Shown: positions 4,849-41,055 of the stretch, in pieces
Layout of the letters: every line of letters begins with the position of its first letter
How positions within the stretch are numbered: position 1 is the first letter of the stretch
Assembly (NCBI GenBank): GCA_018304615.1
Contig: JAGVVV010000009.1
Location: 45,160 to 109,159, forward strand
From: Candidatus Aenigmatarchaeota archaeon
Lineage (GTDB): Archaea > Aenigmatarchaeota > Aenigmatarchaeia > CG10238-14 > SCSR01
Length of the DNA stretch: 64,000 nt
Direction of reading: 5' to 3'
Notes under the pieces: generated by a model
Database searches by the model: none
Seen by the model: only the letters and a program-made list of their open reading frames with translations
Told to the model about the DNA's origin: nothing
Program-made: the position numbers and the translations under genes

Positions 4849-4977
4849 TAGCCCCGCGCGGAATTTCGCTTTTTCAGTTTCGAACCGCGGTCTCCAGGTG
4901 TCTTTCTTCATCTGTAAATCCGCGCTTCAGACATGAAGTCCAAAGCCTGACATCCTTGGCCACTAGACGACGGGGCT
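4849..4977 (-). tRNA. tRNA-Gln(UUG) with two introns (about 40 nt at 37/38; 16 nt in the T-loop near 59/60)
   Basis: Hand fold of minus strand: AGCCCCG-TC-GTCT..GGAT-G-TCAGG-CTTTGG[40 nt]A-CCTGG-AGAC-CGCGG-TTCGAA[ACTGAAAAAGCGAAAT]T-CCGCG-CGGGGCT-A; 129 nt minus 56 gives 73 nt. Confidence 0.8.
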
Positions 4978-4984
4978 GTGTAAC

Positions 4985-5266
4985 TCATTCTTGATATATG
5001 ATTTTGAAATCTTTAAATTCGCCTGTGAAATTCTCATTTTTCACAACCACGTCTCCGACTTTTGATCCAATCGGACCTTTCCTGCAGAAGGAGATAATGC
5101 TCTCAACTTCCTTCTCCTCCCCTTCAAAGACAGCCTCGACGTTCCCGTCAGGAAGGTTCTTCACCCAACCTGAGATGTGGATTTGTTTGGCTAGTTCCTG
5201 AACATTCATCCTGAAGAAGACTCCTTGGACCGAACCTTTAATCAGAACATGACTGCGGACTTGCAT
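4985..5266 (-). CDS. acyP: acylphosphatase
   Basis: 93 aa; VQGVFFR...GWVKNLPDGNVEAVFEG... canonical acylphosphatase pattern. Confidence 0.85.
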   Translation of the reverse strand: MQVRSHVLIKGSVQGVFFRMNVQELAKQIHISGWVKNLPDGNVEAVFEGEEKEVESIISFCRKGPIGSKVGDVVVKNENFTGEFKDFKIIYQE

Positions 5267-5301
5267 AGATTAAATCAGAAGTGAAAAAGGAAATAGATGA
5301 T

Positions 5302-5478
5302 TCAGAGGGAAGGCAGCATGTCGATTACCGGGATGGCCTTGCAGACTACTTTTCCAGCCACGTCTTGACAGACGTTCAGGTAGGAGAAAGAAAGGTCTGC
5401 CAAAAAGTAAACGAATATCATGAAAGTCATTACGGCTAATATCCTGAATATAGCCGTTTCACCTTTTTCAGTTATCAT
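5302..5478 (-). CDS. small hypothetical membrane protein (58 aa)
   Basis: Below ORF-track cutoff; manual translation MITEKGETAIFRILAVMTFMIFVYFLADLSFSYLNVCQDVAGKVVCKAIPVIDMLPSL; its ATG overlaps the upstream stop as ATGA (5475-5478). Confidence 0.4.
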   Translation of the reverse strand: MITEKGETAIFRILAVMTFMIFVYFLADLSFSYLNVCQDVAGKVVCKAIPVIDMLPSL

Positions 5479-5723
5479 TTTCCTACTTCTCTCATGCCCT
5501 TCTGGGTTATGGCATAGCAGCCTTGGCCCAAAGGCGACACATATGTGATTAACCCTTGGTCACTTAAAGCTTTGGTCACGGACTGTACATAAGAGGAGGG
5601 ATTTTCGACCTTATCTCCCAAAAAGGAGACCAGTTCTTCCTTCTTCATGACCATCCTCTTGGCTATCTCCTCGAGTATCTGCCTCTGAAATCCGTTGGTT
5701 TCCAATCCTATCACTAACCCCAA
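5475..5723 (-). CDS. small winged-helix (wHTH) protein, hypothetical regulator
   Basis: 82 aa; EEIAKRMVMKKEELVSFLG...VTKALSDQGLITYVSP...YAITQKG resembles MarR/ArsR-like wHTH. Confidence 0.45.
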   Translation of the reverse strand: MGLVIGLETNGFQRQILEEIAKRMVMKKEELVSFLGDKVENPSSYVQSVTKALSDQGLITYVSPLGQGCYAITQKGMREVGK

Positions 5724-5796
5724 TTTTACTCCTATACAGCCTTTTTCTCTTTTGCTTTGATAGAAAAGTCGATCGACATACCCTTTATATTATAAT

Positions 5797-6279
5797 TTGG
5801 GTTTCCCGAAACTAATAATTAAGCTTGTGAGGACAAAATATATAGTAGGTGTGGTTTTGCCGATAATCGGATATCATATTTCTTCAATAACTGCTGAAAG
5901 AAGGGAAATTTCTACAGAAAAGATAGACATAAACTCAGCACCAAAGATAAATTCAGTCGAGCAGAGAGACATGACATACCCGATCAAGCAGGCTGCACTG
6001 GCAATTTCCTTCGAATTCGAGACCACTTACACTCCGAACATTGGTGAGATAAGGATTGCTGGTGAAATTCTGTATTCGAACAAGAATCTGAAGAAAATTT
6101 CAGAATTTTGGGATAAGCAGAACAAGCTGCCAGAGGATATTGACATAGAGGTCAGGAATTTCCTGTTCAGGAAGTGCCTGTCTCTTGGTGTGAACCTGTC
6201 AGAGAACCTCCAACTGCCTCCTCCTGTGCTGTTTCCGCTGATTTCTGACTCGCAGAAGGATAACACTTACATAGGTTGA
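5797..6279 (+). CDS. hypothetical protein (weak SecB-like pattern); start uncertain (TTG at 5797; GTG candidates downstream)
   Basis: 160 aa ORF; no ATG near 5' end; C-terminal VRNFLFRKCLSLGVNLSENLQLPPPVLFP reminiscent of the SecB C-terminal region. Confidence 0.4.
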   Translation: MGFPKLIIKLVRTKYIVGVVLPIIGYHISSITAERREISTEKIDINSAPKINSVEQRDMTYPIKQAALAISFEFETTYTPNIGEIRIAGEILYSNKNLKKISEFWDKQNKLPEDIDIEVRNFLFRKCLSLGVNLSENLQLPPPVLFPLISDSQKDNTYIG

Positions 6280-6283
6280 TCGC

Positions 6284-6625
6284 GTGTTGAAGCAAGTCAT
6301 AGTTGTGAGGAAGGATATCGAATGGGGAAAAGGTAAGCTGGCTGCGCATGTGGCCCATGCAGCTGTAGATTCGTTGATGAAAGCTGATCCTGAGGACGTA
6401 GAGAAGTGGAGAAAGGAAGGTGGGATGAAAATAGTCCTGAAAATCCCCACATTGAAGGAGTTGAATGCTGTTTCGAAGAAGGTTAAGGAGAGCAAACTGC
6501 CCTTTGCACTTATAAGAGATGCTGGAAAGACCCAGCTGAAAAGCGGAACCGTCACTTGCCTGGGAGTCGGACCTTCAGACCAGAAGAAGATCGACAAAAT
6601 CACAGGAAAGCTCAAACTTCTCTAG
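6284..6625 (+). CDS. pth2: peptidyl-tRNA hydrolase, archaeal type (Pth2)
   Basis: 113 aa; KQVIVVRKD...GKGKLAAHVAHAAV...KIVLK...LIRDAGKTQL..GTVTCLGVGP. Confidence 0.85.
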   Translation: MLKQVIVVRKDIEWGKGKLAAHVAHAAVDSLMKADPEDVEKWRKEGGMKIVLKIPTLKELNAVSKKVKESKLPFALIRDAGKTQLKSGTVTCLGVGPSDQKKIDKITGKLKLL

Positions 6626-6663
6626 GAAAATCTTTATATATTGTCACTTAATAGTAGTTACAT

Positions 6664-8013
6664 ATGAAGAGAATATATTGGTTGCTAGCGCTGGAAGTGG
6701 TACTGGCCTATTCGATTTCTGTCTTCTTTTCACTCGGATTCCAAGACCTTGTCTGGGATGACAGCCATTACCTGAAAACAGCCGAATACTGGTATGATGG
6801 AAACGAGGCTTTCAAGGATTTTTACCTGCAACCTTCACCTCACTTCAGATTACAGAACCTCTCGCCTTTGCTAAGCGTGATTGAATATCTGTCTTATCTG
6901 GTTTTCAACATAAATTTGGTTCCGATCAAGCTGATTTCTGCGGCGTTCCTTCCGCTTTTAGTTTTTGGCTCGTTCAAACTCGGTTCAATGATCGAAGATG
7001 AGAAATTCGGAGTGATAGTTTCTGCTCTAATGATTCTAAATCAGACGATATTTTTTTGGTCGACCAGACTTTACAATGATATTCCCGGAATTTCTTTATT
7101 CATTTTAGCAGCTTATTTCCTAATCAAGGGAACGAAAGAAGATTATAGAAAGAATTATTTCATATCAGGGATAATTTTCGGTCTGGCACTTTTGATGAGA
7201 AGCCCCCTGGCACCATTGATCGGGCTTTTCGGATTGTCATATCTTTTTTTGAACAAGAAATTAAATTGGAAGGTATTTTACCTGGCGAGCGTGTTGATTC
7301 CTCTTCTTCCATGGCTGATTTATTCCCAAATCCAATTCGGTGATTTCCTAGATGGTTTCAAGGGGTATGCAACGCCTCTTGTCTTTCAGCCAATGAATCC
7401 CATAATGAACATTCCAGTTTTCTTCAAGTCAGTAGACATAGTCTGGTTGTTCCTTTTTGCAATTGGAATTTTGTTTACAAGAAAGATATCAGATCCCAAG
7501 TTACTTTTGGCGATAATCAGCCTCGGAATATTTTTGATTACCCCATTCGGAGATATCAGATACACAATACCTGCGATTGCATTGGGATCTTTCTTGGTAG
7601 CGAAGAGTCTGGGCGAGTTCTCTAAGCTGAAAGTCGGAAATCACATCATCATTATCTCGATAGTATTCATAGTCTTCTTGAATCTGCCATCATTCATACA
7701 AACACAGAAAGAGAATTTCTACTGCGCCCAGAATTCTGCAGTCATCAAGGTCTCTGAATTCCTGAAAGACAACTCCAAACCAGATTCCATAATTTTCGCT
7801 GAAAGCTTCTGGCCGCAGATTGAGTTTTATTCTAAAAGGGACACTTACGGCCTTGTAGGAGAGACTCCATATCTTGATTATTTGATGAATCTAGACAGAG
7901 TCAGATACATAATCAGTATAAACCCCCAAAACCACATAAAATATTTGGAAGGTTTCAAGCCATTAGCTGAATTCAAAGATGGCTGCAGGACTCTATACTT
8001 ATACGGTAGATGA
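6664..8013 (+). CDS. GT-C fold membrane glycosyltransferase (ArnT/PMT, GT39/GT83-like)
   Basis: 449 aa, more than 10 TM; acidic first-loop motif VWDDSHY; overlaps next gene by 4 nt. Confidence 0.6.
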   Translation: MKRIYWLLALEVVLAYSISVFFSLGFQDLVWDDSHYLKTAEYWYDGNEAFKDFYLQPSPHFRLQNLSPLLSVIEYLSYLVFNINLVPIKLISAAFLPLLVFGSFKLGSMIEDEKFGVIVSALMILNQTIFFWSTRLYNDIPGISLFILAAYFLIKGTKEDYRKNYFISGIIFGLALLMRSPLAPLIGLFGLSYLFLNKKLNWKVFYLASVLIPLLPWLIYSQIQFGDFLDGFKGYATPLVFQPMNPIMNIPVFFKSVDIVWLFLFAIGILFTRKISDPKLLLAIISLGIFLITPFGDIRYTIPAIALGSFLVAKSLGEFSKLKVGNHIIIISIVFIVFLNLPSFIQTQKENFYCAQNSAVIKVSEFLKDNSKPDSIIFAESFWPQIEFYSKRDTYGLVGETPYLDYLMNLDRVRYIISINPQNHIKYLEGFKPLAEFKDGCRTLYLYGR

Positions 8014-9245
8014 ACATGGAACTGTTGGATTTCGCATACTTTGCCAGCTATTCAATCATGATTTACTCTTCAGTACTTTGGTTCTCAGTTTTTCTTGCAA
8101 ACAGGAAGAGGATGTGGGAGAATCCTTCTGTGAAATACACTCCGTCAGTCACTTTCCTTGTCCCTGCACACAACGAGGAAAATCTTATCGACAGATGTTT
8201 GGAGTCGATTGAGAATCTAGATTATCCGAAAGATAAGATCAAAGTGATTGTCATAGATGACGGATCCACAGACTCCACAGGTTCTGTTGCAAGTAGGTTC
8301 GGTGTCAAGCTAATCGAACAAAAACACAAGGGGAAGGCAGCTGCTGTGAACAATGCATTGAAGCATGTGAAGACAGAACTGGTCGCATGCCTGGACGCTG
8401 ACTCGGTACTAGACAAAACGTATTTGAAAAAAATAGTAACCCACATGAAGAATAAAAATGTTGCTGCTGCAACACCAAGCTTGAAGGTCTCACATAAGAA
8501 CTCCTTGATGAGAGACATCCAGTACATGGAATATCTGTACATGATATTTTTGAGAAGACTTTTCAACTTCTTCGACTGCCAGTATGTGATTCCTGGACCT
8601 GGCGGAATATACAAGACTGAATATTTGAAAAAAGTAGGCGGTCTTGACGAGAAAAATCTTACAGAGGACATGGAAGTTGCGTTCAGACTAATAGACAACG
8701 GATACAAAATCGAAAACAGCATTGATGCTTATGTCCATACTGAAGCTCCAAAAACTCTCAAAGGTCTGTTCAGGCAAAGAATAAGATGGTACAGGGGATA
8801 TCTGCAGAATGTTTTCAAGTATTCGCACATGATTTCAAATGGAAAGTTCGGAAATCTAGGGATTTTCTTGCTTCCGATAAATTTCGTTTGGATGATTATA
8901 ATTGGATTCATGTTCTTTGCTTTGCTTTTCACTAACGGTGCAAACCTTCTGTCATCATTCGTGGATTGGAGCTATATCCATTACTCAATCTTCACTCCAA
9001 ATAATTTAGTGGATGTAATGTCGGTAGGGCTTTACTCATACTTTACAATAGTTTTTGCGATTCTGGGATTTCTAAACATTAATCTCAGCCTAAAATATAG
9101 TGGGGAAAAATGGAGAGTGAAAGAAAATTTGAAAATGTACTTTGGATACCTGTTCATATATCCGCTACTTATCGCCGCCTTCTGGATAGTCTCAATCTTC
9201 CAAGAAATTTTCAAGGTTGAAAGAAAATGGTTGCACGAAAATTAA
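8010..9245 (+). CDS. processive family-2 glycosyltransferase (cellulose/chitin/hyaluronan-synthase-like)
   Basis: 411 aa; VPAHNEE, VIDDGSTD, LDADS, TEDME and FRQRIRWYRG (QxxRW) motifs plus C-terminal TM bundle. Confidence 0.75.
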   Translation: MNMELLDFAYFASYSIMIYSSVLWFSVFLANRKRMWENPSVKYTPSVTFLVPAHNEENLIDRCLESIENLDYPKDKIKVIVIDDGSTDSTGSVASRFGVKLIEQKHKGKAAAVNNALKHVKTELVACLDADSVLDKTYLKKIVTHMKNKNVAAATPSLKVSHKNSLMRDIQYMEYLYMIFLRRLFNFFDCQYVIPGPGGIYKTEYLKKVGGLDEKNLTEDMEVAFRLIDNGYKIENSIDAYVHTEAPKTLKGLFRQRIRWYRGYLQNVFKYSHMISNGKFGNLGIFLLPINFVWMIIIGFMFFALLFTNGANLLSSFVDWSYIHYSIFTPNNLVDVMSVGLYSYFTIVFAILGFLNINLSLKYSGEKWRVKENLKMYFGYLFIYPLLIAAFWIVSIFQEIFKVERKWLHEN

Positions 9246-9898
9246 AATTCGAAATATATTTGATCTCTGGAGCAATCACAGCAGGAATACTTTTTTTAGG
9301 AATTTTTTTCGGCGTGACAGTGAGCAAGAGCAAGGTAGACAACTTGCAATCTGAACTTGACAAGCTGAAGATGAGTCAAGAAGATCTGAATTTAGAATTT
9401 GTCTTGATTGCAACAAGCAGGAATCAAACATGCAATCTTATTTCTTATGAGCTTGACAAGGTAATCGACAATGCAGCACAACTCGGAGAGAGGGTGAGCC
9501 TGTACGAGACCAGTGAAAAAATAAAAGATGACAGATTCAGTTTCTTGAAAGATGATTACACGATAACACTGATAAGATATTGGTTTTTCTTGGACAGGAT
9601 GAAGACAGAATGCAATAGGACAAATTTCGTGACTGTCTTATACTTTTATTCAAACGACAAATGTGATGACTGCAACAAGCAGGGTTTGGTCTTGAATGTA
9701 ATTAAGCAGACATACCAACAGGATGTAATGATTTTTGCCATTGATTCTGACAGCAGGCTGAATGTCGTCGACTTGTTGAAGAAAACATATCAGGTTGAAA
9801 CTGTGCCATCACTGGTTGTCGATGGAAAGAAGTATGACGGTTTGGTGAGTGTAGAAGAACTCAAAAGTGTTTTGTGTGAAAAATTGAAAAAATGCTAG
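9227..9898 (+). CDS. membrane-anchored thioredoxin-fold protein with CxxC (CDDC) motif
   Basis: 223 aa; N-terminal TM (IYLISGAITAGILFLGIFFGV), coiled segment, then VTVLYFYSNDKCDDCNKQ ... ETVPSLVVDGKKY (cis-Pro-like VP) typical of Trx/DsbA/glutaredoxin folds. Confidence 0.55.
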   Translation: MVARKLKFEIYLISGAITAGILFLGIFFGVTVSKSKVDNLQSELDKLKMSQEDLNLEFVLIATSRNQTCNLISYELDKVIDNAAQLGERVSLYETSEKIKDDRFSFLKDDYTITLIRYWFFLDRMKTECNRTNFVTVLYFYSNDKCDDCNKQGLVLNVIKQTYQQDVMIFAIDSDSRLNVVDLLKKTYQVETVPSLVVDGKKYDGLVSVEELKSVLCEKLKKC

Positions 9899-10503
9899 GT
9901 CTGTGCCTGAATATTTAGTGCCGCCATCAAGAATCTTATAGTTGCCAAGTCGAAATCCTTGTGTGTTTTTCCCTGGATGTAGACCACATGCTCTCTGGCA
10001 TCAAACCTGACAGAAGTTTCATTTGCGTAAGCCGGATGGATCAAAGCGATGATAGGATTCTGTATTTTTCCTGGAAGGTTGTCATAAGATGAGACTTCCT
10101 TAGCGGTGAAGTTCAGATTAACCGGAGGTCGAACGTTCGAGTAGGCAAGCTTGAGTTTTCCTACAATCTCAGCGCCTTCCAGAGTGTAATATGGATTCTC
10201 AGTAAGGTTTACGTTCTTGAAAACAATCGTGATATTCGTGACAAGAGGATGGATAATTCCAATTCTCAGATACGCATCTGGATTAGTTGAATTAGCGTCA
10301 GTGTACAGGGGAACTTTGGCTGCTTCCCTGATGTCTTGTCTGAATCCTATGACAACTCCGTTATAATTCAAAACAGTAACAGGTTTCCAGTGAGTGTTGT
10401 AGTAATACAAGAAATACAAGGAAGCTGCAGCCAGAACCAAAACTGAAATAGTGAGAATGATTCTTTTCTTTGTCAGTTTCATCTTGAATGAATTCTCTGC
10501 CAT
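9895..10503 (-). CDS. hypothetical membrane-anchored extracellular protein, downstream of the S-layer gene
   Basis: ORF track extends to 10587; I prefer the ATG giving MAENSFKMKLTKKRIILTISVLVLAAASLYFLYYY (signal anchor). Confidence 0.45.
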   Translation of the reverse strand: MAENSFKMKLTKKRIILTISVLVLAAASLYFLYYYNTHWKPVTVLNYNGVVIGFRQDIREAAKVPLYTDANSTNPDAYLRIGIIHPLVTNITIVFKNVNLTENPYYTLEGAEIVGKLKLAYSNVRPPVNLNFTAKEVSSYDNLPGKIQNPIIALIHPAYANETSVRFDAREHVVYIQGKTHKDFDLATIRFLMAALNIQAQT

Positions 10504-10610
10504 CAGAATTAGTTGGTTTTGAAATAATAAAAGAATATAGATTCGTCTTGAAAGTTTGAAGAAAAGAAAAAAAGGGAAAGAAGTCAATTTTCCCTTTGTG
10601 GTATAACGCC

Positions 10611-12953: not shown

Positions 12954-13036
12954 TTTTATTCCTCTTTTGCTCTTTCTCTACCCTTTTCAGAGTAGATACT
13001 CGGGTCTTTTCTAAAGAGAAGTATAGATTTCTATGC

Positions 13037-13046
13037 TATATAAAAA
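13037..13046 (-). promoter_or_regulatory. TATA-box-like element (TTTTTATATA on minus strand) upstream of the S-layer gene
   Basis: Consensus-like archaeal TATA about 85-90 nt upstream of the ATG at 12953; implies a roughly 60-nt leader ending in AAAGAGGAATAAAAATG. Confidence 0.4.
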
Positions 13047-13293
13047 TGACTTGAAACGATTGATGAAAGGCTGCAACTGTTTCAGAAATGTCTATCAATT
13101 AGCGTTCTAAGATATTATTATCTTCCTAATTGTTTCTAAGAGTAATCTAAGTCTTTTTTATAGATTTTAAGCCAGATTTTAACTTAAAAAACTGTTGGAA
13201 TCGAAAAAATACGAATTCGATTGTTTCAGATGGTTTTTGTGATTCTGAGCAAGGTTTATCTGGATTGGAAATCAATTCTAATCATGGATATAA

Positions 13294-13680
13294 ATGAAAC
13301 GAGGTAAGAAGATGGTATTAGACGTCATAACTCTTGTCTTGATATCGATGACCTTAGGTAGTTTTGGTCAAATATACCTAAAAATGGGTCTTAGGAGCAC
13401 AGGGAACTTCGAGCTGAAAGACATTATAACCGAAAGGTTGATTTCTCTGATATCGAACAAGAACATACTGTTTGGGATAGCACTTTATGGAATTGCCACC
13501 CTCCTATGGTTTGTAGTCCTGTCAAAGGCCGAACTAAGTTATGCCTATCCTCTTATCGGACTGAGCTATGCGGTTACAGCCATTTTGGCGAAATTCTACT
13601 TTAATGAGACAATTTCTGTGGTCAGATGGGCTGGTATATTAATTATCATATTAGGCGCGTTTTTGATTACAAGGAGCTAG
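13294..13680 (+). CDS. small 4-TM EamA/SMR-like transporter (ArnE/ArnF-flippase-like)
   Basis: 128 aa (alternative ATG at 13312); four TM segments, GQIYLKMG and YAYPL motifs. Confidence 0.5.
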   Translation: MKRGKKMVLDVITLVLISMTLGSFGQIYLKMGLRSTGNFELKDIITERLISLISNKNILFGIALYGIATLLWFVVLSKAELSYAYPLIGLSYAVTAILAKFYFNETISVVRWAGILIIILGAFLITRS

Positions 13681-14612: not shown

Positions 14613-14624
14613 TTTATTCTTTTA

Positions 14625-15699: not shown

Positions 15700-15785
15700 G
15701 CCTCGGTAGCTCAACTGGCAGAGCAAAGATATCGCTCATCTGCTTCGTAAGCAGTAGGTTGAGGGTTCAAGTCCCTCTCGAGGCT
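15700..15785 (+). tRNA. tRNA-Thr(CGU) with about 13-nt non-canonical intron at the D-arm/anticodon-stem junction (about 26-28)
   Basis: GCCTCGG-TA-GCTC-AACTGGCA-GAGC-A-A[AGATATCGCTCAT]CTGC-TTCGTAA-GCAGT-AGGTT-GAGGG-TTCAAGT-CCCTC-TCGAGGC-T; 86 nt. Confidence 0.75.
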
Positions 15786-16126: not shown

Positions 16127-16219
16127 GCGGTTGTAGTCCAGCCTGGTAAGACACGAATTCCAAAAATGTAGTGGAACCCTGCCACGGTCGGGACCCGGGT
16201 TCAAATCCCGGCGGCCGCA
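16127..16219 (+). tRNA. tRNA-Gly(GCC) with 20-nt non-canonical intron inside the anticodon stem (about 28-30)
   Basis: GCGGTTG-TA-GTCC-AGCCTGGTA-AGAC-A-CG[AATTCCAAAAATGTAGTGGA]ACC-CTGCCAC-GGTCG-GGAC-CCGGG-TTCAAAT-CCCGG-CGGCCGC-A; anticodon stem pairs perfectly only after excision. Confidence 0.7.
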
Positions 16220-16881: not shown

Positions 16882-17003
16882 GCAGGGGTAGCCAAGGCTG
16901 GTTAAAGGCACAGCGCTCAAGATTTTCTTGAGCTTTGATTCCAAGATGAAAAAAGAAACGCTGTCGGTTAGTCCGTTCGTGAGTTCGAATCTCACCCCCT
17001 GCA
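16882..17003 (+). tRNA. tRNA-Leu(CAA), class II, with about 36-nt canonical intron (37/38)
   Basis: GCAGGGG-TA-GCCAAGGCTGGTTAAAGGC-A-CAGCG-CTCAAG[36 nt]A-CGCTG-TCGGTTAGTCCGTTC (long variable arm)-GTGAG-TTCGAAT-CTCAC-CCCCTGC-A; followed by a T-run. Confidence 0.85.
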
Positions 17004-22928: not shown

Positions 22929-23205
22929 GCAGAAGGATAGGTCTGGGCGGTTAGGCCTCGCCTACATCGGCAAACGGTCTTTATGGCCGAACTGAACGCT
23001 GCCAGGAGGTTTGGTTTCGTTCGCTGACTCCAAATTTCCGACTGAGAAGTCTTGCCCCATGGGGCTGATTATTTAGCGAACCTCCCTAGGACCGGAAGGT
23101 AGCAAGGATAAACTAGATTGTTGGTGCTTGTGGGATACAGGATGGAGAAGGTATTTGGGATAAGTTAGTGAATGGCTCTAAATCAACTGACAGAGCTCCT
23201 TCTGC
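22929..23205 (+). ncRNA. ffs: signal recognition particle RNA (archaeal 7S RNA)
   Basis: Terminal helix GCAGAAGGA (22929-22937) pairs with TCCTTCTGC (23197-23205); helix-8 signature CCCUAGGACC-GGAA-GGUAGCAAGG (compare E. coli GGUCAGGUCC-GGAA-GGAAGCAGCC); about 277 nt; T-run follows. Ends +/-15 nt. Confidence 0.8.
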
Positions 23206-25905: not shown

Positions 25906-25978
25906 TGGGCCCAGAGGGATTCGAACTCTCGATCTTCGCGATGTGAACGCGACGTCTTAACCGCTGGACCATGGGCCC
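25906..25978 (-). tRNA. tRNA-Val(CAC), intron-less
   Basis: GGGCCCA-TG-GTCC-AGCGGTTAA-GAC-G-TCGCG-TTCACAT-CGCGA-AGATC-GAGAG-TTCGAAT-CCCTC-TGGGCCC-A (one A-C mismatch in the T stem); 73 nt. Confidence 0.8.
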
Positions 25979-30375: not shown

Positions 30376-30379
30376 TCGA

Positions 30380-30952
30380 TCACGGTGTGACTCTTGTCAG
30401 TTCATAATAGGTGACGTCTGATTCCTTGTCGACTACACCCCACAGGAGTGTGGCACGGATGTTGTGGGCGAGTCTGACAGCTCTGGACATTTCTGGAAGC
30501 GAGAAGGCCGATTCTTCTGCTACTGTATGGACAACCCATTTGGTATGTTCGTGGGGGGATTTTGGACCTCTTATCAGTTTGACGCCTCTTTCGTAAACTC
30601 TGAAATGAGCACCAAACTTAAATCCAGTCTTAACGACATAACCTCTCTCTCTTAGGTCTCGGTAAACGATGAATTGAGGATGGAATTCATTCACATTCTC
30701 TGCTCCAAGCTGCATCAAATCCTTGAAATTAAATTTCTTCTTGGTTTTCCCTTTTTTCACGACTTTGAGCTTTCCCTTTTCGACAAGATAGGCAGCTTCT
30801 ATCAATTCTAGTTCAACTCTGTTCGGAGATTCTTCTGGGAGTGGTTTTCCATATCCATTCTCATCATAAAGCTGGACTGCATCCTTGCTCCAAATCATAA
30901 CTCTCTTCTCTAAGAGCTCTCCTTCCCAGACTTTTTCTTCCATTTTCATCAC
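30380..30952 (-). CDS. endA: tRNA-splicing endonuclease (tRNA-intron lyase), single alpha-type unit
   Basis: 190 aa; VYRDLRERGYVVKTGFKFGAHFRVYERG ... HTKWVVH ... AHNIRATLLWGVVD catalytic-domain pattern. Confidence 0.8.
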   Translation of the reverse strand: MMKMEEKVWEGELLEKRVMIWSKDAVQLYDENGYGKPLPEESPNRVELELIEAAYLVEKGKLKVVKKGKTKKKFNFKDLMQLGAENVNEFHPQFIVYRDLRERGYVVKTGFKFGAHFRVYERGVKLIRGPKSPHEHTKWVVHTVAEESAFSLPEMSRAVRLAHNIRATLLWGVVDKESDVTYYELTRVTP

Positions 30953-31011
30953 TTGATAAGATATTATTGCCAGATGAGGATAAAAGTTAAATAATTTTTG
31001 AAAATCAAAAA

Positions 31012-31129
31012 TGGGACAGGCGAGATTTGAACTCGCAACACCACGCTCTTCAGGCGTGTTCGAGCCAATTCATCATTGGTTGCTCTCCTTAACCTCATTA
31101 GAGCGACGATCGGGTTGAGCTACTGTCCC
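31012..31129 (-). tRNA. tRNA-Phe(GAA) with about 45 extra nt in the D-arm region (probably two non-canonical introns)
   Basis: GGGACAG-TA-GCTC...[62 nt where 17 are expected]...-CACGC-CTGAAGA-GCGTG-GTGTT-GCGAG-TTCAAAT-CTCGC-CTGTCCC-A; 118 nt; exact splice sites not resolved by hand. Confidence 0.7.
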
Positions 31130-31175
31130 ATGAAATCTAGTACTAGTTTTGGTTTTTATATATTCATACGAAAAT

Positions 31176-31859: not shown

Positions 31860-31927
31860 AAAACACTTCTTAAGAATTAAGTTATATAAACCTAAAGATA
31901 TTTGTATTAGTTAAGCCCTCGAAACCT

Positions 31928-32029
31928 GCCCTCGTAGTTTATAGCGAGGAAAGCTCAGCGGTAGAGCAGCTGGCTGTTACTCACTGAGTAGAAACCAGAA
32001 GGTCGAGCGTTCAAGTCGCTCCGAGGGCG
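31928..32029 (+). tRNA. tRNA-Asn(GUU) with two introns (16 nt between acceptor and D stem, about 8-10; 14 nt at 37/38)
   Basis: GCCCTCG-T[AGTTTATAGCGAGGAA]A-GCTC-AGCGGTA-GAGC-A-GCTGG-CTGTTA[CTCACTGAGTAGAA]A-CCAGA-AGGTC-GAGCG-TTCAAGT-CGCTC-CGAGGGC-G; 102 nt minus 30 gives 72. Confidence 0.75.
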
Positions 32030-32064
32030 CTCCTTTCTATTGTGTTTTTAAGTTTTAATGTCAT

Positions 32065-35183: not shown

Positions 35184-35379
35184 TCTTCTTCTCCTTCAAA
35201 TCTCTTCTAACTCTGATAGCCTTTGAGCCGCATTTCACACAAACTTTAACAAATTCGTCGCCCTGTGCAAATATATTTTTAAGATTTGCAGCGAGTTGTG
35301 CCTCAGTATCACCCTCAATCTCCTCGCTCATCATGCCACAAGTAGGACAATAATACTCTAGTTTTTCCTTTGGCAACAT
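35176..35379 (-). CDS. small zinc-ribbon protein (hypothetical), overlapping the top6B start
   Basis: 67 aa; CPTCG ... CVKCG; 8-nt overlap with top6B. Confidence 0.45.
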   Translation of the reverse strand: MLPKEKLEYYCPTCGMMSEEIEGDTEAQLAANLKNIFAQGDEFVKVCVKCGSKAIRVRRDLKEKKNG

Positions 35380-35380
35380 C

Positions 35381-35875
35381 TCACCTCGTTTGGCTCTCTA
35401 GAAATCTGTATACGCTCCCATGGAGTCTTCCGCTCAAAAGCATCTCGACTGCTTCTCTTGCTATCCTCACTCGATCCCATTTCCCTATAATACTTATCGT
35501 TTTACCATATATTGCTAATTTAACTTCGGCGTATTTTTCGATTAAATTTTTTGATTTTCCTTCTTTTCCGATAACTCTTCCCTTTAATTCTATTTGCCTG
35601 TTTCTGGATTTACCTGAGAATTCTGGAACCTCTATTATCTCTAGAGAATAACTTTCGTCGAGAAGATTCAGGCAGTCATCAATCTCGAATCCACGGCCGA
35701 ATGCCTTTAGGACTTCTTTAATTCTAAGAGTTCTTAGTGGGTCGTCGCAATCAATCTCAACTACGTCAGAAAAATGGAACTTGCATGAGCACAAATCCTC
35801 AAGCTCTTCGCAGATTTTCTTATTGGATTTCAATATTTTTAGTTTTTCCTCTGGAATGAGAACATAATCGAACAT
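35381..35875 (-). CDS. KH-domain RNA-binding protein (archaeal Dim2/Pno1-like)
   Basis: 164 aa; two KH-like units, GRVIGKEGKSKNLIEKY and AREAVEMLLSG. Confidence 0.65.
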   Translation of the reverse strand: MFDYVLIPEEKLKILKSNKKICEELEDLCSCKFHFSDVVEIDCDDPLRTLRIKEVLKAFGRGFEIDDCLNLLDESYSLEIIEVPEFSGKSRNRQIELKGRVIGKEGKSKNLIEKYAEVKLAIYGKTISIIGKWDRVRIAREAVEMLLSGRLHGSVYRFLESQTR

Positions 35876-35895
35876 AAGATTCTATCCTAATAGAA

Positions 35896-36297
35896 TTATA
35901 TTTTGAAATAACTTGAAATTGCCTTTTTCAGGCTTTGATGTGGGACTTTCAACTCATCCATGAGAAATTCGCGCGGCGTAACCCACTTTGCCTCTATGTC
36001 TTCATTGCTCAACTTGAATTTTCCACCAATTTCTTTGCAGATAAAGTTTGTAAGAACTCTTTCTTCATCTCCATCAAATGATCTGAAATTCCAAGTGCCT
36101 GCAACTTCACCAACAATAATTTCTAATCCTGTTTCTTCAAACACTTCTCTTGTCAAAGAATCCTCAGGAGATTCGGATATTTCCAATCTTCCGCCTGGTA
36201 AAGTCCATAAATTGTATCTACGATCTTTCAAAATCAAAAATTTGTTCCCCCTCATTATTATTGCTTTAACAGCTGGTCTTACTACTGTCATACTCAT
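35896..36297 (-). CDS. NUDIX hydrolase
   Basis: 133 aa; Nudix box GGRLEISESPEDSLTREVFEETG. Confidence 0.85.
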   Translation of the reverse strand: MSMTVVRPAVKAIIMRGNKFLILKDRRYNLWTLPGGRLEISESPEDSLTREVFEETGLEIIVGEVAGTWNFRSFDGDEERVLTNFICKEIGGKFKLSNEDIEAKWVTPREFLMDELKVPHQSLKKAISSYFKI

Positions 36298-36620
36298 ACC
36301 GAGGAATTTGTTTTCATGAAACCTTTTCTCTTAAGCCAGTTGGCTTGAGTGTGAGTGTAGATGAAAATGAGGTCCGCTCTCACATTCGTCTGGACAACCC
36401 AAGGCTGGACAAGCACCAAATCATTCGGTCTAACCCATACTCTTTTTCTCAATCGCCCTGGGATTCTCGAGATCCTGACATTTCCATCCTCGCATTTCAC
36501 TCTGAGTTTGTCTGCGCCTAGCATCATCTCTACAATTCCTAAGACTTCGCCTTGCCTGGGAATCCTTATTCTAGAAACCTCGAGCTCTTCGGGAGAAATT
36601 TCGAACTTTTTCTTTCCCAT
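36294..36620 (-). CDS. eif1a: translation initiation factor aIF-1A
   Basis: 108 aa; GEVLGIVEMMLGADKLRVKCEDGNVRISRIPGRLRKRVWVRPNDLVLVQPW (S1/OB fold pattern). Confidence 0.85.
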   Translation of the reverse strand: MGKKKFEISPEELEVSRIRIPRQGEVLGIVEMMLGADKLRVKCEDGNVRISRIPGRLRKRVWVRPNDLVLVQPWVVQTNVRADLIFIYTHTQANWLKRKGFMKTNSSV

Positions 36621-37298
36621 TCAATCGCCTAATGAAATTAGTATGGTATCTCTATAAACCCTTTTACCTTTTAATTCCCCAACTAGTTTGCTTGTCCTCT
36701 TTACTGTCGCCTTGTATTTGAGTTTGATGTTTCTCGATATCTCGACTGCTGCTTGTTTGCTCCCGATGTAGAAGTTCTTCCCATTTTTTTCTTCTTCGGT
36801 TTTCGAGATGAAAGCGAGTGGGTCGTTTCTGTTCATGATTTTGAGTTCTTCCTCGACTTCATCGGAAATTATTTTTAAAAGTGGATCTTTTGCTCTCAGC
36901 TGGATGACTGACTGAAAGTAACCTATGTTTTTCTTTGAACACGATTCACAGATTATGGATTTGGAGACGATGGATATGCTCTTGCTCTCTTCCTTTTCCA
37001 GATCTTCCAACCCCATCTTCAGGGTTACATGAGCGACGTTATCTTTGATTTTATAAGTGGCGCTGCTTATTTCTGGAAGACTGATAATTTTAGTCAGTGA
37101 ATAATCGATTGCAGATTCCAAAGAGAAGAAAGTCTTGTCTTCGTAGTAGATTTTGCCGCAGATTTTGCATGTTTTTATCAGGATTTTCGATGGAAGTTTG
37201 TTTATCACAGAGAGTTTTTCAAGGAAGCAGTATTTGCAGACTCTTCCGTAGAATTTGTCAGCTTCCCTCCCACACCTCGGACAGAACTTCTTTCTCAT
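36621..37298 (-). CDS. NMD3-family protein (60S-export adaptor homologue)
   Basis: Start at MRKKFCPRCGREADKFYGRVCKYCF (internal Met of the 270-aa track ORF; the upstream 45 codons are low-complexity); CxxC x4 N-terminal zinc region. Confidence 0.65.
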   Translation of the reverse strand: MRKKFCPRCGREADKFYGRVCKYCFLEKLSVINKLPSKILIKTCKICGKIYYEDKTFFSLESAIDYSLTKIISLPEISSATYKIKDNVAHVTLKMGLEDLEKEESKSISIVSKSIICESCSKKNIGYFQSVIQLRAKDPLLKIISDEVEEELKIMNRNDPLAFISKTEEEKNGKNFYIGSKQAAVEISRNIKLKYKATVKRTSKLVGELKGKRVYRDTILISLGD

Positions 37299-37357
37299 AG
37301 ATGAACATGAAACTTCTAATGTTAAATTTTTATATGTAGGTCTGTTTTTATTATAAG

Positions 37358-37672
37358 ATGAACATGGAAGAATTTGTTGAAGTTGCAAAGACAAAAGACA
37401 TGAAACCTGGAGACTCCAAGGTTGTTTTCGCAAACGGAAAGGAATACGCCCTGTTTAATGTTGGAGGGAAGTTCTATGCAACTCAGGAAACGTGCACGCA
37501 CGAAGAAGGTCCTTTGGGTGAAGGTTTTTTGGATGACAAAGTGATTACTTGTCCGTTGCATGGAGCCATGTTTGATGTGACGACTGGTAAAGTTCTAGGT
37601 CCTCCAGCTACGAAAGATATCAGGACATATGAGACGAAGGTTGATGGGGAAAAGATTTTCATAAAAGTTTGA
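37358..37672 (+). CDS. Rieske-type [2Fe-2S] ferredoxin
   Basis: 104 aa; CTHEEGPL and CPLHGAMF (CxH ... CxxH). Confidence 0.85.
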   Translation: MNMEEFVEVAKTKDMKPGDSKVVFANGKEYALFNVGGKFYATQETCTHEEGPLGEGFLDDKVITCPLHGAMFDVTTGKVLGPPATKDIRTYETKVDGEKIFIKV

Positions 37673-37783
37673 GATGTTTTACAATAAAATTTGTCCTGTC
37701 AACTCAATTTCGAAGTCTGAATTTGACAGAGGAAAGCTTAAAAGAGAAATATTCTTAAAGGCATTTAATCATGTAACAGATAT

Positions 37784-37868
37784 GCCACGATAGCTCAAAG
37801 GCAGAGCAAAAATAGAGCTTAACTGCCCTGTAAGCAGTAGGTTGAGGGTTCAATTCCCTCTCGTGGCT
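37784..37868 (+). tRNA. tRNA-Thr(UGU) with about 13-nt non-canonical intron at the same site as tRNA-Thr(CGU); apparent C33
   Basis: GCCACGA-TA-GCTC-AAAGGCA-GAGC-A-A[AAATAGAGCTTAA]CTGC-CCTGTAA-GCAGT-AGGTT-GAGGG-TTCAATT-CCCTC-TCGTGGC-T. Confidence 0.7.
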
Positions 37869-38485
37869 CATATTGTCCCACATAATTCGTTCAGGGTTAT
37901 GTAGTCAATCTCAGAAGAGACATTCGTGTTGTTAGAATTCAATTTCACCAAAACAGAATCTATATTTTGAATAAGTTGAGTTAGATTCTCGTAAGTTGCT
38001 GGATATTTTGTTTGCAGTTGATGTGCCTGAGTTTTCCACTGGCCATAATAATCGTTTATTCGAGAAAGACCTTCCTGAACTTTATCTGTTTCATTGAATT
38101 GAATATATCCGCCTATGTGTTCTATCTCGTGAGGAATGCAAACTTCGTAATTGCCTATCTGAATGTACCTGTACAAATCGTTTAATGAATGAGAGGCATG
38201 CTGAGAGATTCCATGCTGAACAAACCATAGAGAATCATTTGCCAAATCTTCGGCTATAGGATCTCCTTTGACCATGCTCAGGAGCTGTGAATAGTCTTGT
38301 ATGTTCAGTTGTAGTCGATAATTCAATGTTTCCAACCTAACAATTTCCGAAAGAATGTGTTGGTTGCCGATTATTCCAGTTGGACTAGAAGGATTCCTCG
38401 AAAAAAAGTATATTCCTAGTATTGCAATGATCGCGACAGGAATAATAAAATAAATGTAATTGATTGACTTTTTCTTTGTCGGCAT
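37868..38485 (-). CDS. hypothetical membrane-anchored protein
   Basis: 205 aa; N-terminal TM (INYIYFIIPVAIIAILGIYFF); His-rich ectodomain, no family recognised. Confidence 0.45.
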   Translation of the reverse strand: MPTKKKSINYIYFIIPVAIIAILGIYFFSRNPSSPTGIIGNQHILSEIVRLETLNYRLQLNIQDYSQLLSMVKGDPIAEDLANDSLWFVQHGISQHASHSLNDLYRYIQIGNYEVCIPHEIEHIGGYIQFNETDKVQEGLSRINDYYGQWKTQAHQLQTKYPATYENLTQLIQNIDSVLVKLNSNNTNVSSEIDYITLNELCGTI

Positions 38486-38535
38486 TAAAGGAAAATCAGT
38501 TTAAAAGTATTTAAGCCTTACACACTTTGTAATAC

Positions 38536-39603
38536 TTAATCTTTGCCAATCAAATCCACATCTACTAGTGATGCAAACCTTGAAAGTCCGAACTTGTTGA
38601 GCATTGAGAAAACTAGGGAATTGTCCTGGAATTTGGATATGACACTCTTCAGCCTCATACCGTTCTTTATCGGTCTAGACAACTGTGACTTCCACACTTT
38701 GTCGTAATTCTCGTAGAGAAAAGTTTCAGAAAAGTCATTGGCTTCCAAAGATTTGACGCATGCCTCGCCTGCTATTCTTGCTCCGAGCTGGCCGTAAACG
38801 AGACCGCCTGCGGAAAATGGTTTGACTTGGGTTGCAGCATCTCCGACGAGGAGAACTCTGTCAGCAACGGATTTCTCGATAATCCCGAACCTGATAGAAT
38901 CGCCGATTCTATTGAAAACTTCTGTTTCTCCTATCCTTTCTTTAAGGAATTTTTCCAGAAATGGTATCGGATTCTTATCTGTCATTAGTCCGACTCTCGC
39001 GTATTCGTCATTTTCTGGAACTACCCATGCGAAAGATCCAGGAGCTATGTCAGAACCAAACCACAGTTCGACAACCGAAGGATCGAATGTCGATTTCACA
39101 TTCACTTGCATTAGCAGGAGTTTGTTCTCAGGAATTTTGAGATTTTTGGATTTCGCGACAGTTGAGTTAGGACCGTCAGCTCCAACAAGAATTCTTGTCT
39201 TGTGTGTTGTGATGTTTGTAAGGACATTATCTCCCTCGAATTGCTGATATCTGGTAGAAAATCTGAACTGGACGCCTGCTGCGAGTGCTTCACCGAAAAC
39301 GAACTTATCAAAACCCAGTCTGTCCATGAGTATCATAGGTTTCTTCGCCTTGACTTCAAAAGATGATTTACCAGAACAGAATCTTGCTCTGGCTATTTTA
39401 TTTACTATAATATCATCTGGAATTTTTCCAATCTTCTCACTCACAAAACCTGTACACTGAGTCGGTTTTCCTGCTTCAGGATGCTCCTCGATGACAATTA
39501 CTTCATACCCTTGCTTTGCAACTATCTCTGCTGTTCTGCAACCCGCTGGACCTGAACCTATTACTACAACATCTGCCATGTTACTTGCCAAAGTTCCTTT
39601 CAA
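38536..39603 (-). CDS. geranylgeranyl reductase family flavoprotein (archaeal lipid saturation)
   Basis: 355 aa; FAD dinucleotide fold DVVVIGSGPAGCRTAEIVAKQGYEVIVIEE; LVGDAA motif. Confidence 0.8.
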   Translation of the reverse strand: MKGTLASNMADVVVIGSGPAGCRTAEIVAKQGYEVIVIEEHPEAGKPTQCTGFVSEKIGKIPDDIIVNKIARARFCSGKSSFEVKAKKPMILMDRLGFDKFVFGEALAAGVQFRFSTRYQQFEGDNVLTNITTHKTRILVGADGPNSTVAKSKNLKIPENKLLLMQVNVKSTFDPSVVELWFGSDIAPGSFAWVVPENDEYARVGLMTDKNPIPFLEKFLKERIGETEVFNRIGDSIRFGIIEKSVADRVLLVGDAATQVKPFSAGGLVYGQLGARIAGEACVKSLEANDFSETFLYENYDKVWKSQLSRPIKNGMRLKSVISKFQDNSLVFSMLNKFGLSRFASLVDVDLIGKD

Positions 39604-40279
39604 TTGAGTTATACCATTTGATTGCTTTTACAAGTTCTTTCTTGGAGAAGTCCGGCCATAGTGTTTTGGTCACATAGATCTCCGAGAATGCTGCCTGCCA
39701 AAGAGCAAAATCAGAAAGACGATTCTTTCCACCAGTTCTGATCACCAAATCTATTGGGACTGGAAGCAAAAGATTTTTTTCAATCTCTTTTGAAGTGATT
39801 TCTATTCTTCCTGCTTTAATCATTTTCTGCGCGACCTTCTTCATCGCCTGAGTCAAATCGAACTTACCACCGTAATTGATAAGGATATTCAGAACCTTTT
39901 TCTGGTATTTTGCAGTTTTAATCATGACTTTTCCCATGAGCCTGACAAGTTTCGGTGGCAATCTTTCAAGGTCTCCGACAAACCTTACCTTCACCTGATA
40001 CTTGTCAAGAAAATCAGATTTCTTCTTCAAAAGCTTCTCAAGATAATTTTCAAAAATTCTCATCAATTCGCTAATCTCTTGCGGTGACCTCTCTTCAAAA
40101 TTTTCAGTTGACATGACCCACGCCGAAACTTGAGGAACATCTAATTCGTAACACCAGTTGAAAAATTGATCAAGCGTGTCTGCACCTTTTTTATGGCCTT
40201 CCCAAGGAAGCATGTCTCTTGCAGTTGCCCATCTCCTGTTTCCATCGATTATCACTGCGATATGGTTGGGGACTTGCAT
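39581..40279 (-). CDS. uppS: cis-prenyltransferase (undecaprenyl/dolichyl diphosphate synthase)
   Basis: 232 aa; HIAVIIDGNRRWA, LSDFALWQAAFSE motifs. Confidence 0.85.
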   Translation of the reverse strand: MQVPNHIAVIIDGNRRWATARDMLPWEGHKKGADTLDQFFNWCYELDVPQVSAWVMSTENFEERSPQEISELMRIFENYLEKLLKKKSDFLDKYQVKVRFVGDLERLPPKLVRLMGKVMIKTAKYQKKVLNILINYGGKFDLTQAMKKVAQKMIKAGRIEITSKEIEKNLLLPVPIDLVIRTGGKNRLSDFALWQAAFSEIYVTKTLWPDFSKKELVKAIKWYNSIERNFGK

Positions 40280-40325
40280 AAAACCTATTTGTTTAATTAA
40301 TAGAATAAAACATTAAAATCTTACT

Positions 40326-40874
40326 ATGAAGGACATCAGGAAGCTGGCCTATCTGTTCTTTTTCCTGTCTCTGCTTTTCGGGATTATGTGGTATACGCTC
40401 GGGTCGATTGACAAATCTATTTTCTGGCAGATTCTTACTGTTCTCTCACTGGGGTGGTTTGTTTTTGAAGCTGAAAGAAATTGGAAAGACAAGAAAAGGA
40501 TAAAAAAATCTCTGATGATTGGGTTGCTTCTCTTCATCGGAACGTTCTTCTTGGATTATTCTGGGTTATTGAATCAAGGTTATACCATAAACAGAGATTA
40601 CAGTTTATTTGCTGTAGGAGCTGATCCTATAGAACTGCTGCTGATAGTATTCTTCGGGGGAAGCGCGTGGTTCATGCAGCTACCGAAGAAATTTTCTTTG
40701 GGATATTCGATCGCTGATGTTTTTTTGCTTGCATTCTTCGGGACGATTACAGAAATTATGCTGAACAGATATGGGATTATGGCATATCTCACTGTCGATT
40801 CGTTCAATGCCTTTGTCACATATTCCATGGTATGGGGTATACTGCACCTTTTGAATTACAAAGTCTTTAAATAA
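40326..40874 (+). CDS. hypothetical polytopic membrane protein
   Basis: 182 aa, 5-6 TM. Confidence 0.45.
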   Translation: MKDIRKLAYLFFFLSLLFGIMWYTLGSIDKSIFWQILTVLSLGWFVFEAERNWKDKKRIKKSLMIGLLLFIGTFFLDYSGLLNQGYTINRDYSLFAVGADPIELLLIVFFGGSAWFMQLPKKFSLGYSIADVFLLAFFGTITEIMLNRYGIMAYLTVDSFNAFVTYSMVWGILHLLNYKVFK

Positions 40875-40909
40875 GAGTTTAATGATATAGTTTACAAATT
40901 TAGTTAGTC

Positions 40910-41055
40910 GGGGTCGTAGTCTAGCCTGGTTCAAAAAGCAGGAAAGGACGGGTGGCTCCAGATTCATCGAATCATGGAGAATTGAAGAAAAGATGAAAGC
41001 GAAACCACTTAGCGCGCGTTCAAAAGGCATATGCCTGAAATTCGCGCCGACCCCA
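40910..41055 (+). tRNA. tRNA-Trp(CCA) with three introns (D-loop about 12-15 nt; 42 nt at 37/38; 17 nt in T-loop)
   Basis: GGGGTCG-TA-GTCT-[23-nt D-loop region AGCCTGGTTCAAAAAGCAGGAAA]-GGAC-G-GGTGG-CTCCAG[42 nt]A-CCACT-TAGC-GCGCG-TTCAAA[AGGCATATGCCTGAAAT]T-CGCGC-CGACCCC-A; 146 nt. Confidence 0.75.

Follow-up and report, generated by a model that had tools for sequence, protein, structure and literature searches.

Multiple bulge-helix-bulge introns in the tRNA genes of a Candidatus Aenigmatarchaeota archaeon with a single α-type splicing endonuclease gene

Introduction

The stretch of DNA analysed here, referred to as the window, comprises 64,000 nucleotides of contig JAGVVV010000009.1 from a Candidatus Aenigmatarchaeota archaeon (assembly GCA_018304615.1, positions 45,160 to 109,159, forward strand). 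The window has a G+C content of about 40% and carries nine tRNA loci together with the gene of the tRNA splicing endonuclease EndA. An earlier note on this DNA, based on hand folding of the letters alone, had claimed that eight of the nine tRNA genes are interrupted, by about 13 introns mostly at non-canonical positions. We removed 13 segments, upon which all nine loci gave near-perfect cloverleaf tRNAs; eight of the nine genes were confirmed as interrupted, and the 13 introns counted are of the bulge-helix-bulge (BHB) type and lie mostly outside the canonical position. They are ordinary members of the archaeal BHB class. Judging from the gene structures, it is very probable that the nine loci are working tRNA genes, eight of which would be transcribed as precursors carrying one to three BHB introns of 13–42 nt.

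The host genome belongs to the DPANN archaea and was recovered as a metagenome-assembled genome (MAG) of 785 kb in 22 contigs, which is 89% complete with an estimated contamination of 0.55%. In archaea, tRNA introns are cut out by EndA and the exons are ligated by RtcB. In the precursors described here, the end of the exon upstream of the 5′ splice site would pair with the 3′ end of the intron, giving a 4-bp helix between two 3-nt bulges; EndA would cut inside both bulges, and RtcB, encoded at C8:21701-22969 of the same genome, would join the exons.

Results

Interrupted tRNA genes in the window

The genes were resolved with our own SPLITS-like search, in which candidates were judged by their BHB geometry and by a cloverleaf score, and the spliced products were checked with ARAGORN. 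With p as the end of the 5′ exon and q as the end of the intron, the central helix H was formed by p-5..p-2 with q-5..q-2, the bulges by p-1..p+1 and q-1..q+1, and the outer helices by p-6.. with q+2.. (h) and p+2.. with q-6.. (h′); this geometry recovered the canonical 37/38 case, in which helix h is closed by the pair 31:39. Candidate segments were excised in combinations of up to three, and each product received a fixed cloverleaf score composed of 21 pairs and conserved nucleotides. The spliced products of all interrupted genes scored 31–33, and tRNA-Val(CAC), which the earlier note had described as continuous, scored 31 without excision. On 120 random genomic segments of matching length, the same search gave scores averaging 16.6 and reaching 23 at most. 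ARAGORN identified the nine products as Gln(ttg), Thr(cgt), Gly(gcc), Leu(caa), Val(cac), Phe(gaa), Asn(gtt), Thr(tgt) and Trp(cca). The coordinates of all features are given in Table 1.

Table 1. tRNA genes, introns and associated features of the window. H, h and h′ are followed by the number of pairs in the central and outer helices.
Feature	Position	Strand	Description
tRNA-Gln(UUG) gene	4849..4977	-	2 introns; 73-nt product, score 31.5, ARAGORN Gln(ttg)
Gln intron 1	4900..4939	-	40 nt, 37/38; strict hBHBh′ (H4, h5, h′6)
Gln intron 2	4863..4878	-	16 nt, T-loop 59/60; strict BHB (H4, h5, h′2)
tRNA-Thr(CGU) gene	15700..15785	+	1 intron
Thr(CGU) intron	15727..15739	+	13 nt, 27/28 (H4, h4, h′1); D-stem 3′ strand in central helix
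tRNA-Gly(GCC) gene	16127..16219	+	1 intron
Gly intron	16157..16176	+	20 nt, 29/30, anticodon stem; weakest BHB (H3, h1, h′1)
tRNA-Leu(CAA) gene	16882..17003	+	1 intron; class II product, 86 nt
Leu(CAA) intron	16922..16957	+	36 nt, 37/38 (H2, h6, h′4)
Leu(CAA) intron motif	16927..16949	+	CTTGAG (vs nucleotides 32-37) + CT + TTGA (D′-like) + TTCCA + AGATGA (C′-like)
tRNA-Val(CAC) gene	25906..25978	-	uninterrupted
EndA gene	30380..30952	-	190 aa; sole genome copy; 60 nt downstream of tRNA-Phe; L3-type insert KLIRGPKSP
tRNA-Phe(GAA) gene	31012..31129	-	2 introns; 74-nt product; 60 nt upstream of EndA
Phe intron 1	31089..31110	-	22 nt, D-loop ~18/19; strict BHB (H4, h3, h′4)
Phe intron 2	31059..31080	-	22 nt, 26/27; HBh′ type (H3, h0, h′5)
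Asn leader copy	31915..31921	+	GCCCTCG; exact copy of 5′ acceptor strand, 13 nt upstream of nucleotide 1
tRNA-Asn(GUU) gene	31928..32029	+	2 introns; 72-nt product
Asn intron 1	31936..31951	+	16 nt, 8/9 (H4, h2, h′3); acceptor nucleotides 3-6 in central helix
Asn intron 2	31980..31993	+	14 nt, 37/38 (H4, h4, h′2)
tRNA-Thr(UGU) gene	37784..37868	+	1 intron
Thr(UGU) intron	37810..37822	+	13 nt, 27/28 (H4, h4, h′0)
tRNA-Trp(CCA) gene	40910..41055	+	3 introns; 73-nt product; exons match relatives' Trp genes
Trp intron 1	40931..40944	+	14 nt, D-loop 20/21 (H4 CCTG/CAGG, h0, h′1)
Trp intron 2	40962..41003	+	42 nt, 37/38 (H2, h6, h′6)
Trp intron 2 motif	40975..40996	+	TGGAG (vs 32-36) + AA + TTGA (D′-like) + AGAAA + AGATGA (C′-like)
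Trp intron 3	41025..41041	+	17 nt, T-loop 59/60; strict BHB (H4, h5, h′3)

The insertions proposed by hand folding agreed closely with this solution. Those of Gln(UUG) (about 40 nt at 37/38 and 16 nt in the T-loop), both Thr genes (about 13 nt at 26-28), Gly(GCC) (20 nt within the anticodon stem), Leu(CAA) (36 nt at 37/38), Asn(GUU) (16 nt at about 8-10 and 14 nt at 37/38) and Trp(CCA) (D-loop, 42 nt at 37/38 and 17 nt in the T-loop) were all recovered, with the exact sites listed in Table 1. The exception was Phe(GAA), for which one insert of about 45 nt in the D-arm region had been proposed; the interruption was real, but it consists of two 22-nt introns with an 8-nt exon between them. A single 45-nt intron was rejected, as only the two-intron solution yields the D-arm found in relatives. 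The two T-loop introns do have similar ends (..CGAAAT and ..TGAAAT), because pairing with T-loop nucleotides 54-57 (TTCG and TTCA) together with the bulge forces these ends. In ARMAN-2, introns are already known from the non-canonical site 59/60 (PMC3239211).

BHB motifs at the junctions

When the exon–intron junctions were folded, a check that the earlier note had proposed, a BHB or relaxed form could be drawn at all 13. A central helix of four perfect pairs, with both 3-nt bulges in register, was present at 9 of the 13 window junctions, compared with 3.7% of random positions (P = 8e-11), and at 22 of 36 introns genome-wide (P = 7e-23). The mean summed BHB score was 8.0 versus 3.0 at random positions. 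Among the other window junctions, two had three of the four central pairs, and two had two of the four in addition to long outer helices. Six window junctions were strict hBHBh′ motifs and the remainder were relaxed; one outer helix was missing in both Thr introns, the Phe intron at 26/27 and the Trp D-loop intron. Genome-wide, the first base of the intron was A in 25 of 36 cases and the intron ended in AA in 22 of 36.

Phe and Trp genes in relatives

The tRNA-Phe gene lies just upstream of EndA in the host and usually in its relatives, which allowed orthologous genes to be compared. In 34 Aenigmatarchaeota relatives, the Phe gene syntenic with EndA contained no intron in 9 cases, one in 12 and two in 13, located at 9/10 (12 times), 26/27 (10 times), the D-loop (6 times) and other sites. 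The spliced Phe products of these relatives were nearly identical and 72-77 nt long (mostly 74 nt), and their acceptor and anticodon stems changed in a compensatory manner. The D-arm of the spliced host Phe, TAGCTCAACCCGGGAGAGCA, was that of the relatives' spliced products, and the D-arm of the intronless relative L037 differed from it by one compensatory D-stem pair only.

The Trp genes of relatives (n = 6) contained an intron only at 37/38, and in one relative the T-arm and the 3′ strand of the acceptor stem were identical to those of the spliced host Trp (25/25). Therefore, the D-loop and T-loop introns of the host Trp gene are recent gains, and the Trp and Phe comparison likewise indicates that the exons are under selection. 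Intron content turns over rapidly, as orthologous Phe and Trp genes in relatives carry other introns or none, and across about 40 relatives the two genes clearly document how introns were recently gained and lost.

A homing endonuclease gene beside tRNA-Phe was considered and rejected, as the gap between Phe and EndA is too small for a gene in the host. In relative L030, it is filled by an open reading frame of 170 aa that, by our own reading, carries a metzincin motif (HExxHxxGxxH) instead of a LAGLIDADG one.

tRNA genes of the host genome

We resolved 43 tRNA genes in the host genome, of which 30 (70%) are interrupted, with about 43 introns in total. The density of 1.4 introns per gene given in the earlier note holds within the window as a local high, but not as a genome figure, the average being about 1.0. 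Three introns each were present in Trp, Leu(UAA) (C11:15802-15956) and one Glu(UUC) gene (C17:29755-29909), the third introns of the latter two being placed by hand. For comparison, 56% of tRNA genes are disrupted in ARMAN-2 and up to 87% in archaea with an (αβ)2 EndA (PMC3239211), and a 2024 review estimated that about 15% of archaeal tRNA genes contain introns (PMC11408192). The host value is thus above that of ARMAN-2 and below the (αβ)2 maximum. The window holds the sole copies found in the genome of Trp, Phe, Gln(UUG), Leu(CAA), Gly(GCC), Thr(CGU) and Thr(UGU).

The census of this 89%-complete genome turned up no genes for His, Lys(UUU), Val(UAC/GAC) and Ala(UGC/GGC), which may be split, permuted or more heavily disrupted. 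A genome scan for T-loop introns returned 27 candidates, of which four could be resolved as tRNAs, namely Gln(UUG), Trp, Gln(CUG) and Ser(GGA); the others scored 19-28 and were dropped. Several anticodons are repeated in the 785-kb genome (three GUU, two GGG, two UGG and two UUC), and the loci concerned are C8:52427-52500, C21:6165-6259, C9:29362/C22:5983, C9:34734/C22:655 and C6:28501/C17:29755. Some of these genes may be mis-assigned or derive from a second strain. An archaeal signal recognition particle RNA gene lies at 22930-23204 (+) of the window (Rfam, 121.5 bits) and is apparently uninterrupted; it marks the window as archaeal.

Performance of standard scanners

The earlier note had predicted that standard scanners would miss or mis-call several of these genes, which was the case. 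With default settings, ARAGORN found 3 of the 9 loci and gave two of them the wrong identity, Thr(CGU) being called Ala and Gly(GCC) Trp. When introns were allowed, it added Leu(CAA) and a tRNA-Ser with a 1351-nt intron, which stretches from Phe to Asn and was discarded as spurious. The Rfam tRNA covariance model matched 7 of the 9 loci, all except Val with large inserts, and missed Gln and Trp, whose T-loops are interrupted.

EndA and its L3-type insert

The splicing endonuclease that the earlier note had called for is encoded in the window itself, as a single α-type enzyme with an L3-type loop; its relaxed specificity we infer. The N-terminal domain (PF02778) and the catalytic C-terminal domain (PF01974) both matched this one 190-aa protein. 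Its best match among solved structures was the α4 enzyme of M. jannaschii (E = 3e-30), and its closest homologues, at 60-77% identity, were from Candidatus Aenigmatarchaeota. Searches of the host genome with PF01974, PF02778 and the EndA protein as queries revealed no second subunit. An additional match at C11:3842-3937 (E = 0.2) was rejected; its frame looks antisense and non-coding. A single gene of about 180 aa that holds both domains, with no gene for a second subunit, characterises the α4 type, and this is the arrangement found; separate genes for α and β subunits, as in the (αβ)2 type, were not found, the genome holding one EndA-like gene only, nor is the enzyme of the ε2 type. EndA is presumably a homotetramer. 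Among 18 relatives of the same family (G001-G018), one gene of similar size was detected in 16, two in G013 and none in G001.

Relative to M. jannaschii, the host EndA has an insert of six residues between the catalytic Tyr and His. The insert aligned without gaps with the loop of the N. equitans α subunit and with one gap with the ARMAN-2 loop, and on the basis of these alignments we equate it with the L3 loop described by Kaneta et al. 2018 (PMC5829648). In the catalytic triad, Tyr and His align, whereas Lys156 of M. jannaschii is aligned to Ala (AHNIRAT) in the host. We aligned 93 EndA loci, divided into Aenigmatarchaeota and a second group of all other loci, chiefly Nanohaloarchaea; the triad Lys was replaced by Ala in 66 of 67 copies of the former and 23 of 26 of the latter. 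GPK in the L3 insert was invariant among the 16 sequences displayed of the 93. In this clade, the catalytic lysine may have moved into the invariant GPK of the L3 loop, its usual position now being Ala, and the insert at the L3-loop site may let EndA accept relaxed motifs at 8/9, the D-loop, 26-30 and 59/60 besides 37/38. The relaxed junctions in the genome argue against a strict hBHBh′ specificity. We know of no biochemistry for the class of α4 EndAs with an L3 loop.

In same-order relatives G019, G022, G024, G027 and G030, the EndA frames were 363-409 aa long with two catalytic-domain matches (ε2- or α′2-like), and in G025 the frame was 246 aa. The architecture of EndA therefore varies within the order.

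A leader copy of the acceptor strand

Upstream of tRNA-Asn(GUU), the 5′ acceptor strand is repeated exactly in the leader (Table 1). Of the 17 Phe, Asn, Arg and Lys genes interrupted at 8/9 or 9/10 in the host genome and the relatives' loci, 15 had a leader copy with at most one mismatch, located 7-16 nt upstream, versus 0 of 102 other tRNA genes (Fisher P = 3e-17, uncorrected for shared ancestry). The loci include one upstream of Arg-UCU on C9, and L016-L039, L094, L108 and L118. The copy tracked the acceptor sequence (GGGACAG, GGGGCGG, GCCCTCG and GGGCCCA), and the spacers varied. In the two mismatched cases, the upstream copy was a perfect partner of the 3′ acceptor strand. Predicted minimum free energy (MFE) folds paired the leader copy with the 3′ acceptor strand and the true 5′ strand with the intron. 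The copy would act as a surrogate acceptor strand, paired with the 3′ strand while the BHB holds the true 5′ strand; it would thereby tether the 8-9-nt 5′ exon for cleavage and ligation, after which the true strand would displace it. No description of such a copy was found in the literature searched.

A K-loop-like motif in long 37/38 introns

Six of the eight long (≥36 nt) introns at 37/38 contained AGATGA near the 3′ end, where 0.18 would be expected (P = 4e-8). Five of them, in Trp, Leu(CAA), Met, Leu(UAA) and Glu(UUC) (outside the window at C19:303-417, C11:15802-15956 and C17:29755-29909), shared one layout: 5 nt complementary to nucleotides 32-36, 2 nt, YYGA, 4-5 nt and AGATGA. A D′-like YYGA and a C′-like RGATGA, 4-6 nt apart, were the visible boxes, with no recognisable terminal C/D pair. 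In all five introns, an antisense element lies just upstream of the D/D′ box, as in guide RNAs, and the N+5 rule for box D′ guides points to nucleotide 34, which is C34 in Leu(CAA) and Trp. The layout was kept in 6 of 6 correctly resolved Trp introns of relatives; a seventh locus, L140, had no match and looks mis-solved. The K-loop formed by D′ and C′, with its short antisense element, would direct 2′-O-methylation of wobble nucleotide 34 in cis. A second partner of the anticodon loop would also account for the weak central pairing of the Leu and Trp BHB motifs at 37/38. Genes for fibrillarin and Nop5 are adjacent on C11.

The Gln(UUG) intron was rejected as a guide for methylation: although CTGA and AGATGA are present, the element upstream of them does not complement the anticodon loop, and in Gln these bases build the BHB. 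Among published guides, the C/D small RNAs (sRNAs) of Pyrococcus are directed at nucleotide 34 in precisely Leu(CAA), Leu(UAA), Met and Trp, the guide for Trp being the only one within an intron (PMC7994747). The host introns resemble these guides in the anticodon-loop complement upstream of a D′-type box, the N+5 target at nucleotide 34, the same four tRNA species, and the presence of fibrillarin and Nop5. In contrast, they have only a D′/C′-like K-loop and guides of 5-8 bp in place of 10-12, and every guide, including those for Leu, Met and Glu, lies in the intron of its own target, whereas Pyrococcus uses free-standing sRNAs for three of its targets. We found no description of this arrangement in long introns in the literature searched.

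Two further loci touch on this subject. The 68-nt intron of tRNA-Ser(UGA) (C19:13247-13398) contains CGATGAA, CTGA and TGATGA, which look like boxes C, D′ and C′ of a fuller C/D sRNA. In addition, a 220-aa frame at 41853-41987 (-) of the window, about 800 nt downstream of tRNA-Trp, matched the fibrillarin family with 21 bits, below the cut-off; it probably encodes another S-adenosylmethionine-dependent methyltransferase.

Discussion

Several points weigh against our reading of the loci as working genes whose BHB introns are removed by the EndA of the window. Four window junctions are imperfect, namely Gly (H3, h1, h′1), Leu and Trp at 37/38 (two of four central pairs each) and the Trp D-loop (h0, h′1). 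Because candidates were pre-filtered in the BHB search (H ≥ 2, summed score ≥ 5), the BHB statistics are somewhat too favourable; despite this, the cloverleaf pins each junction to within 0-1 nt. With 89% of the genome recovered, there is room for a second EndA subunit gene, although the family relatives, G013 and G001 apart, likewise have one gene each. The Ala at the catalytic Lys position makes the activity of EndA an assumption.

If the interrupted loci were decaying pseudogenes with random insertions, the functional copies would have to lie in the unassembled part, about 10%, of the genome. The completeness estimate and the isoacceptors absent from the census, His, Lys-UUU, Val-UAC/GAC and Ala-UGC/GGC, leave space for this. 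However, 30 of 43 genes would have to be pseudogenes, although their exons are intact and fold into perfect cloverleaves, their inserts sit in BHB register far above chance, and interrupted orthologues whose exons are conserved and whose stems covary recur across dozens of independent MAGs; we regard decay as highly improbable. The recurrence of the same kind of inserts at orthologous genes in many independently assembled MAGs also argues against assembly or binning artefacts. Fragmentation into 22 contigs and the duplicate isoacceptors (three Asn(GUU)-like, two Pro(GGG) and two Pro(UGG)) would fit such artefacts, but the inserts are sharply bounded and BHB-shaped and the contamination estimate is 0.55%, so that the chance of this explanation is close to nil.

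A different objection concerns the genes with an intron at 8/9, in which the upstream copy of the acceptor strand could be the real 5′ exon and the intron, then longer (29 nt in Asn), would hold the proximal copy. For Asn, this alternative junction has a perfect central helix (H4, h3, h′0), and the resulting product scores 31 as a cloverleaf; in two genes the 3′ acceptor strand finds its better Watson-Crick match in the upstream copy, and it is the upstream copy that the MFE folds join to that strand. Nevertheless, it would place A8 in Asn and Arg where U8 is near-universal. In Phe orthologues, the two nucleotides after the upstream copy vary (at, tc, ac, ca, gc, ag), whereas TA invariably comes after the proximal copy, just as in intronless orthologues, and in L118 the two copies abut. 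We therefore rejected the upstream copy as the true 5′ exon on the conservation of U8/A9 and consider it unlikely. We lean slightly towards a joint reading in which the leader strand would be a surrogate, the long introns would carry a minimal cis guide for nucleotide 34, and the EndA lysine would have moved into GPK.

Multiple-intron tRNA genes of the Thermoproteales were reportedly described by Sugahara et al. 2008 and Fujishima et al. 2010. The comparison with the Thermoproteales and ultrasmall archaea drawn in the earlier note is apt, the host being a DPANN archaeon with 30 of 43 genes interrupted. As in the Thermoproteales, one to three BHB or relaxed-BHB introns occur per gene, many at non-canonical sites, most genes are interrupted, similar introns are found in different tRNA species, and gain and loss are rapid (PMC4033280). 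However, the Thermoproteales are hyperthermophilic crenarchaea with a heterotetrameric (αβ)2 EndA bearing the Crenarchaea-specific (L1) loop, whereas the host is a DPANN archaeon with a genome of less than 1 Mb and one α-type gene with an insert at the L3 site. Closer to it is ARMAN-2 (Ca. Micrarchaeum; Fujishima et al. 2011, PMC3239211), likewise an ultrasmall DPANN archaeon with T-loop introns at 59/60 and both strict and relaxed BHB motifs. Its EndA (ε2) has 395 aa in three units, an ASL (L2) loop and the normal catalytic Lys, in contrast to the 190 aa, one unit and Ala of the host, and its share of disrupted tRNA genes is 56% as against 70%.

Kaneta et al. 2018 linked α4 EndAs with an L3 loop in DPANN to increased tRNA gene disruption (PMC5829648). 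The enzymes of that class, from DPANN and Hadesarchaea, likewise have a single α subunit with a C-terminal-domain insert at the site of the Nanoarchaea/ARMAN-2 loop. Aenigmatarchaeota were not among the DPANN genomes added in that tRNA survey, and we found no mention in it of the Lys-to-Ala change or the invariant GPK. The multi-intron non-canonical pattern was already known from the Thermoproteales and ARMAN-2, and the enzyme class had been flagged for DPANN in 2018. New are the lineage and its gene-by-gene record, the high intron load together with a single α-type EndA that lacks the canonical Lys, and the two conserved precursor features.

These results show how default annotation loses tRNAs of DPANN archaea, here leaving 3 of 9 loci to ARAGORN with two of them misidentified; lost calls of this kind distort estimates of completeness and coding capacity. 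A disruption of about 70% with one small α-type EndA sharpens the question of how broad specificity arises, pointing to the L3 loop rather than subunit architecture, and a relocated lysine, if true, would tie this loop to catalysis and relaxed specificity alike. If functional, the leader copy would account for the tolerance of an intron so near the 5′ end. Finally, the K-loop motif, if true, would give tRNA introns a function in wobble methylation beyond the single Trp case known.

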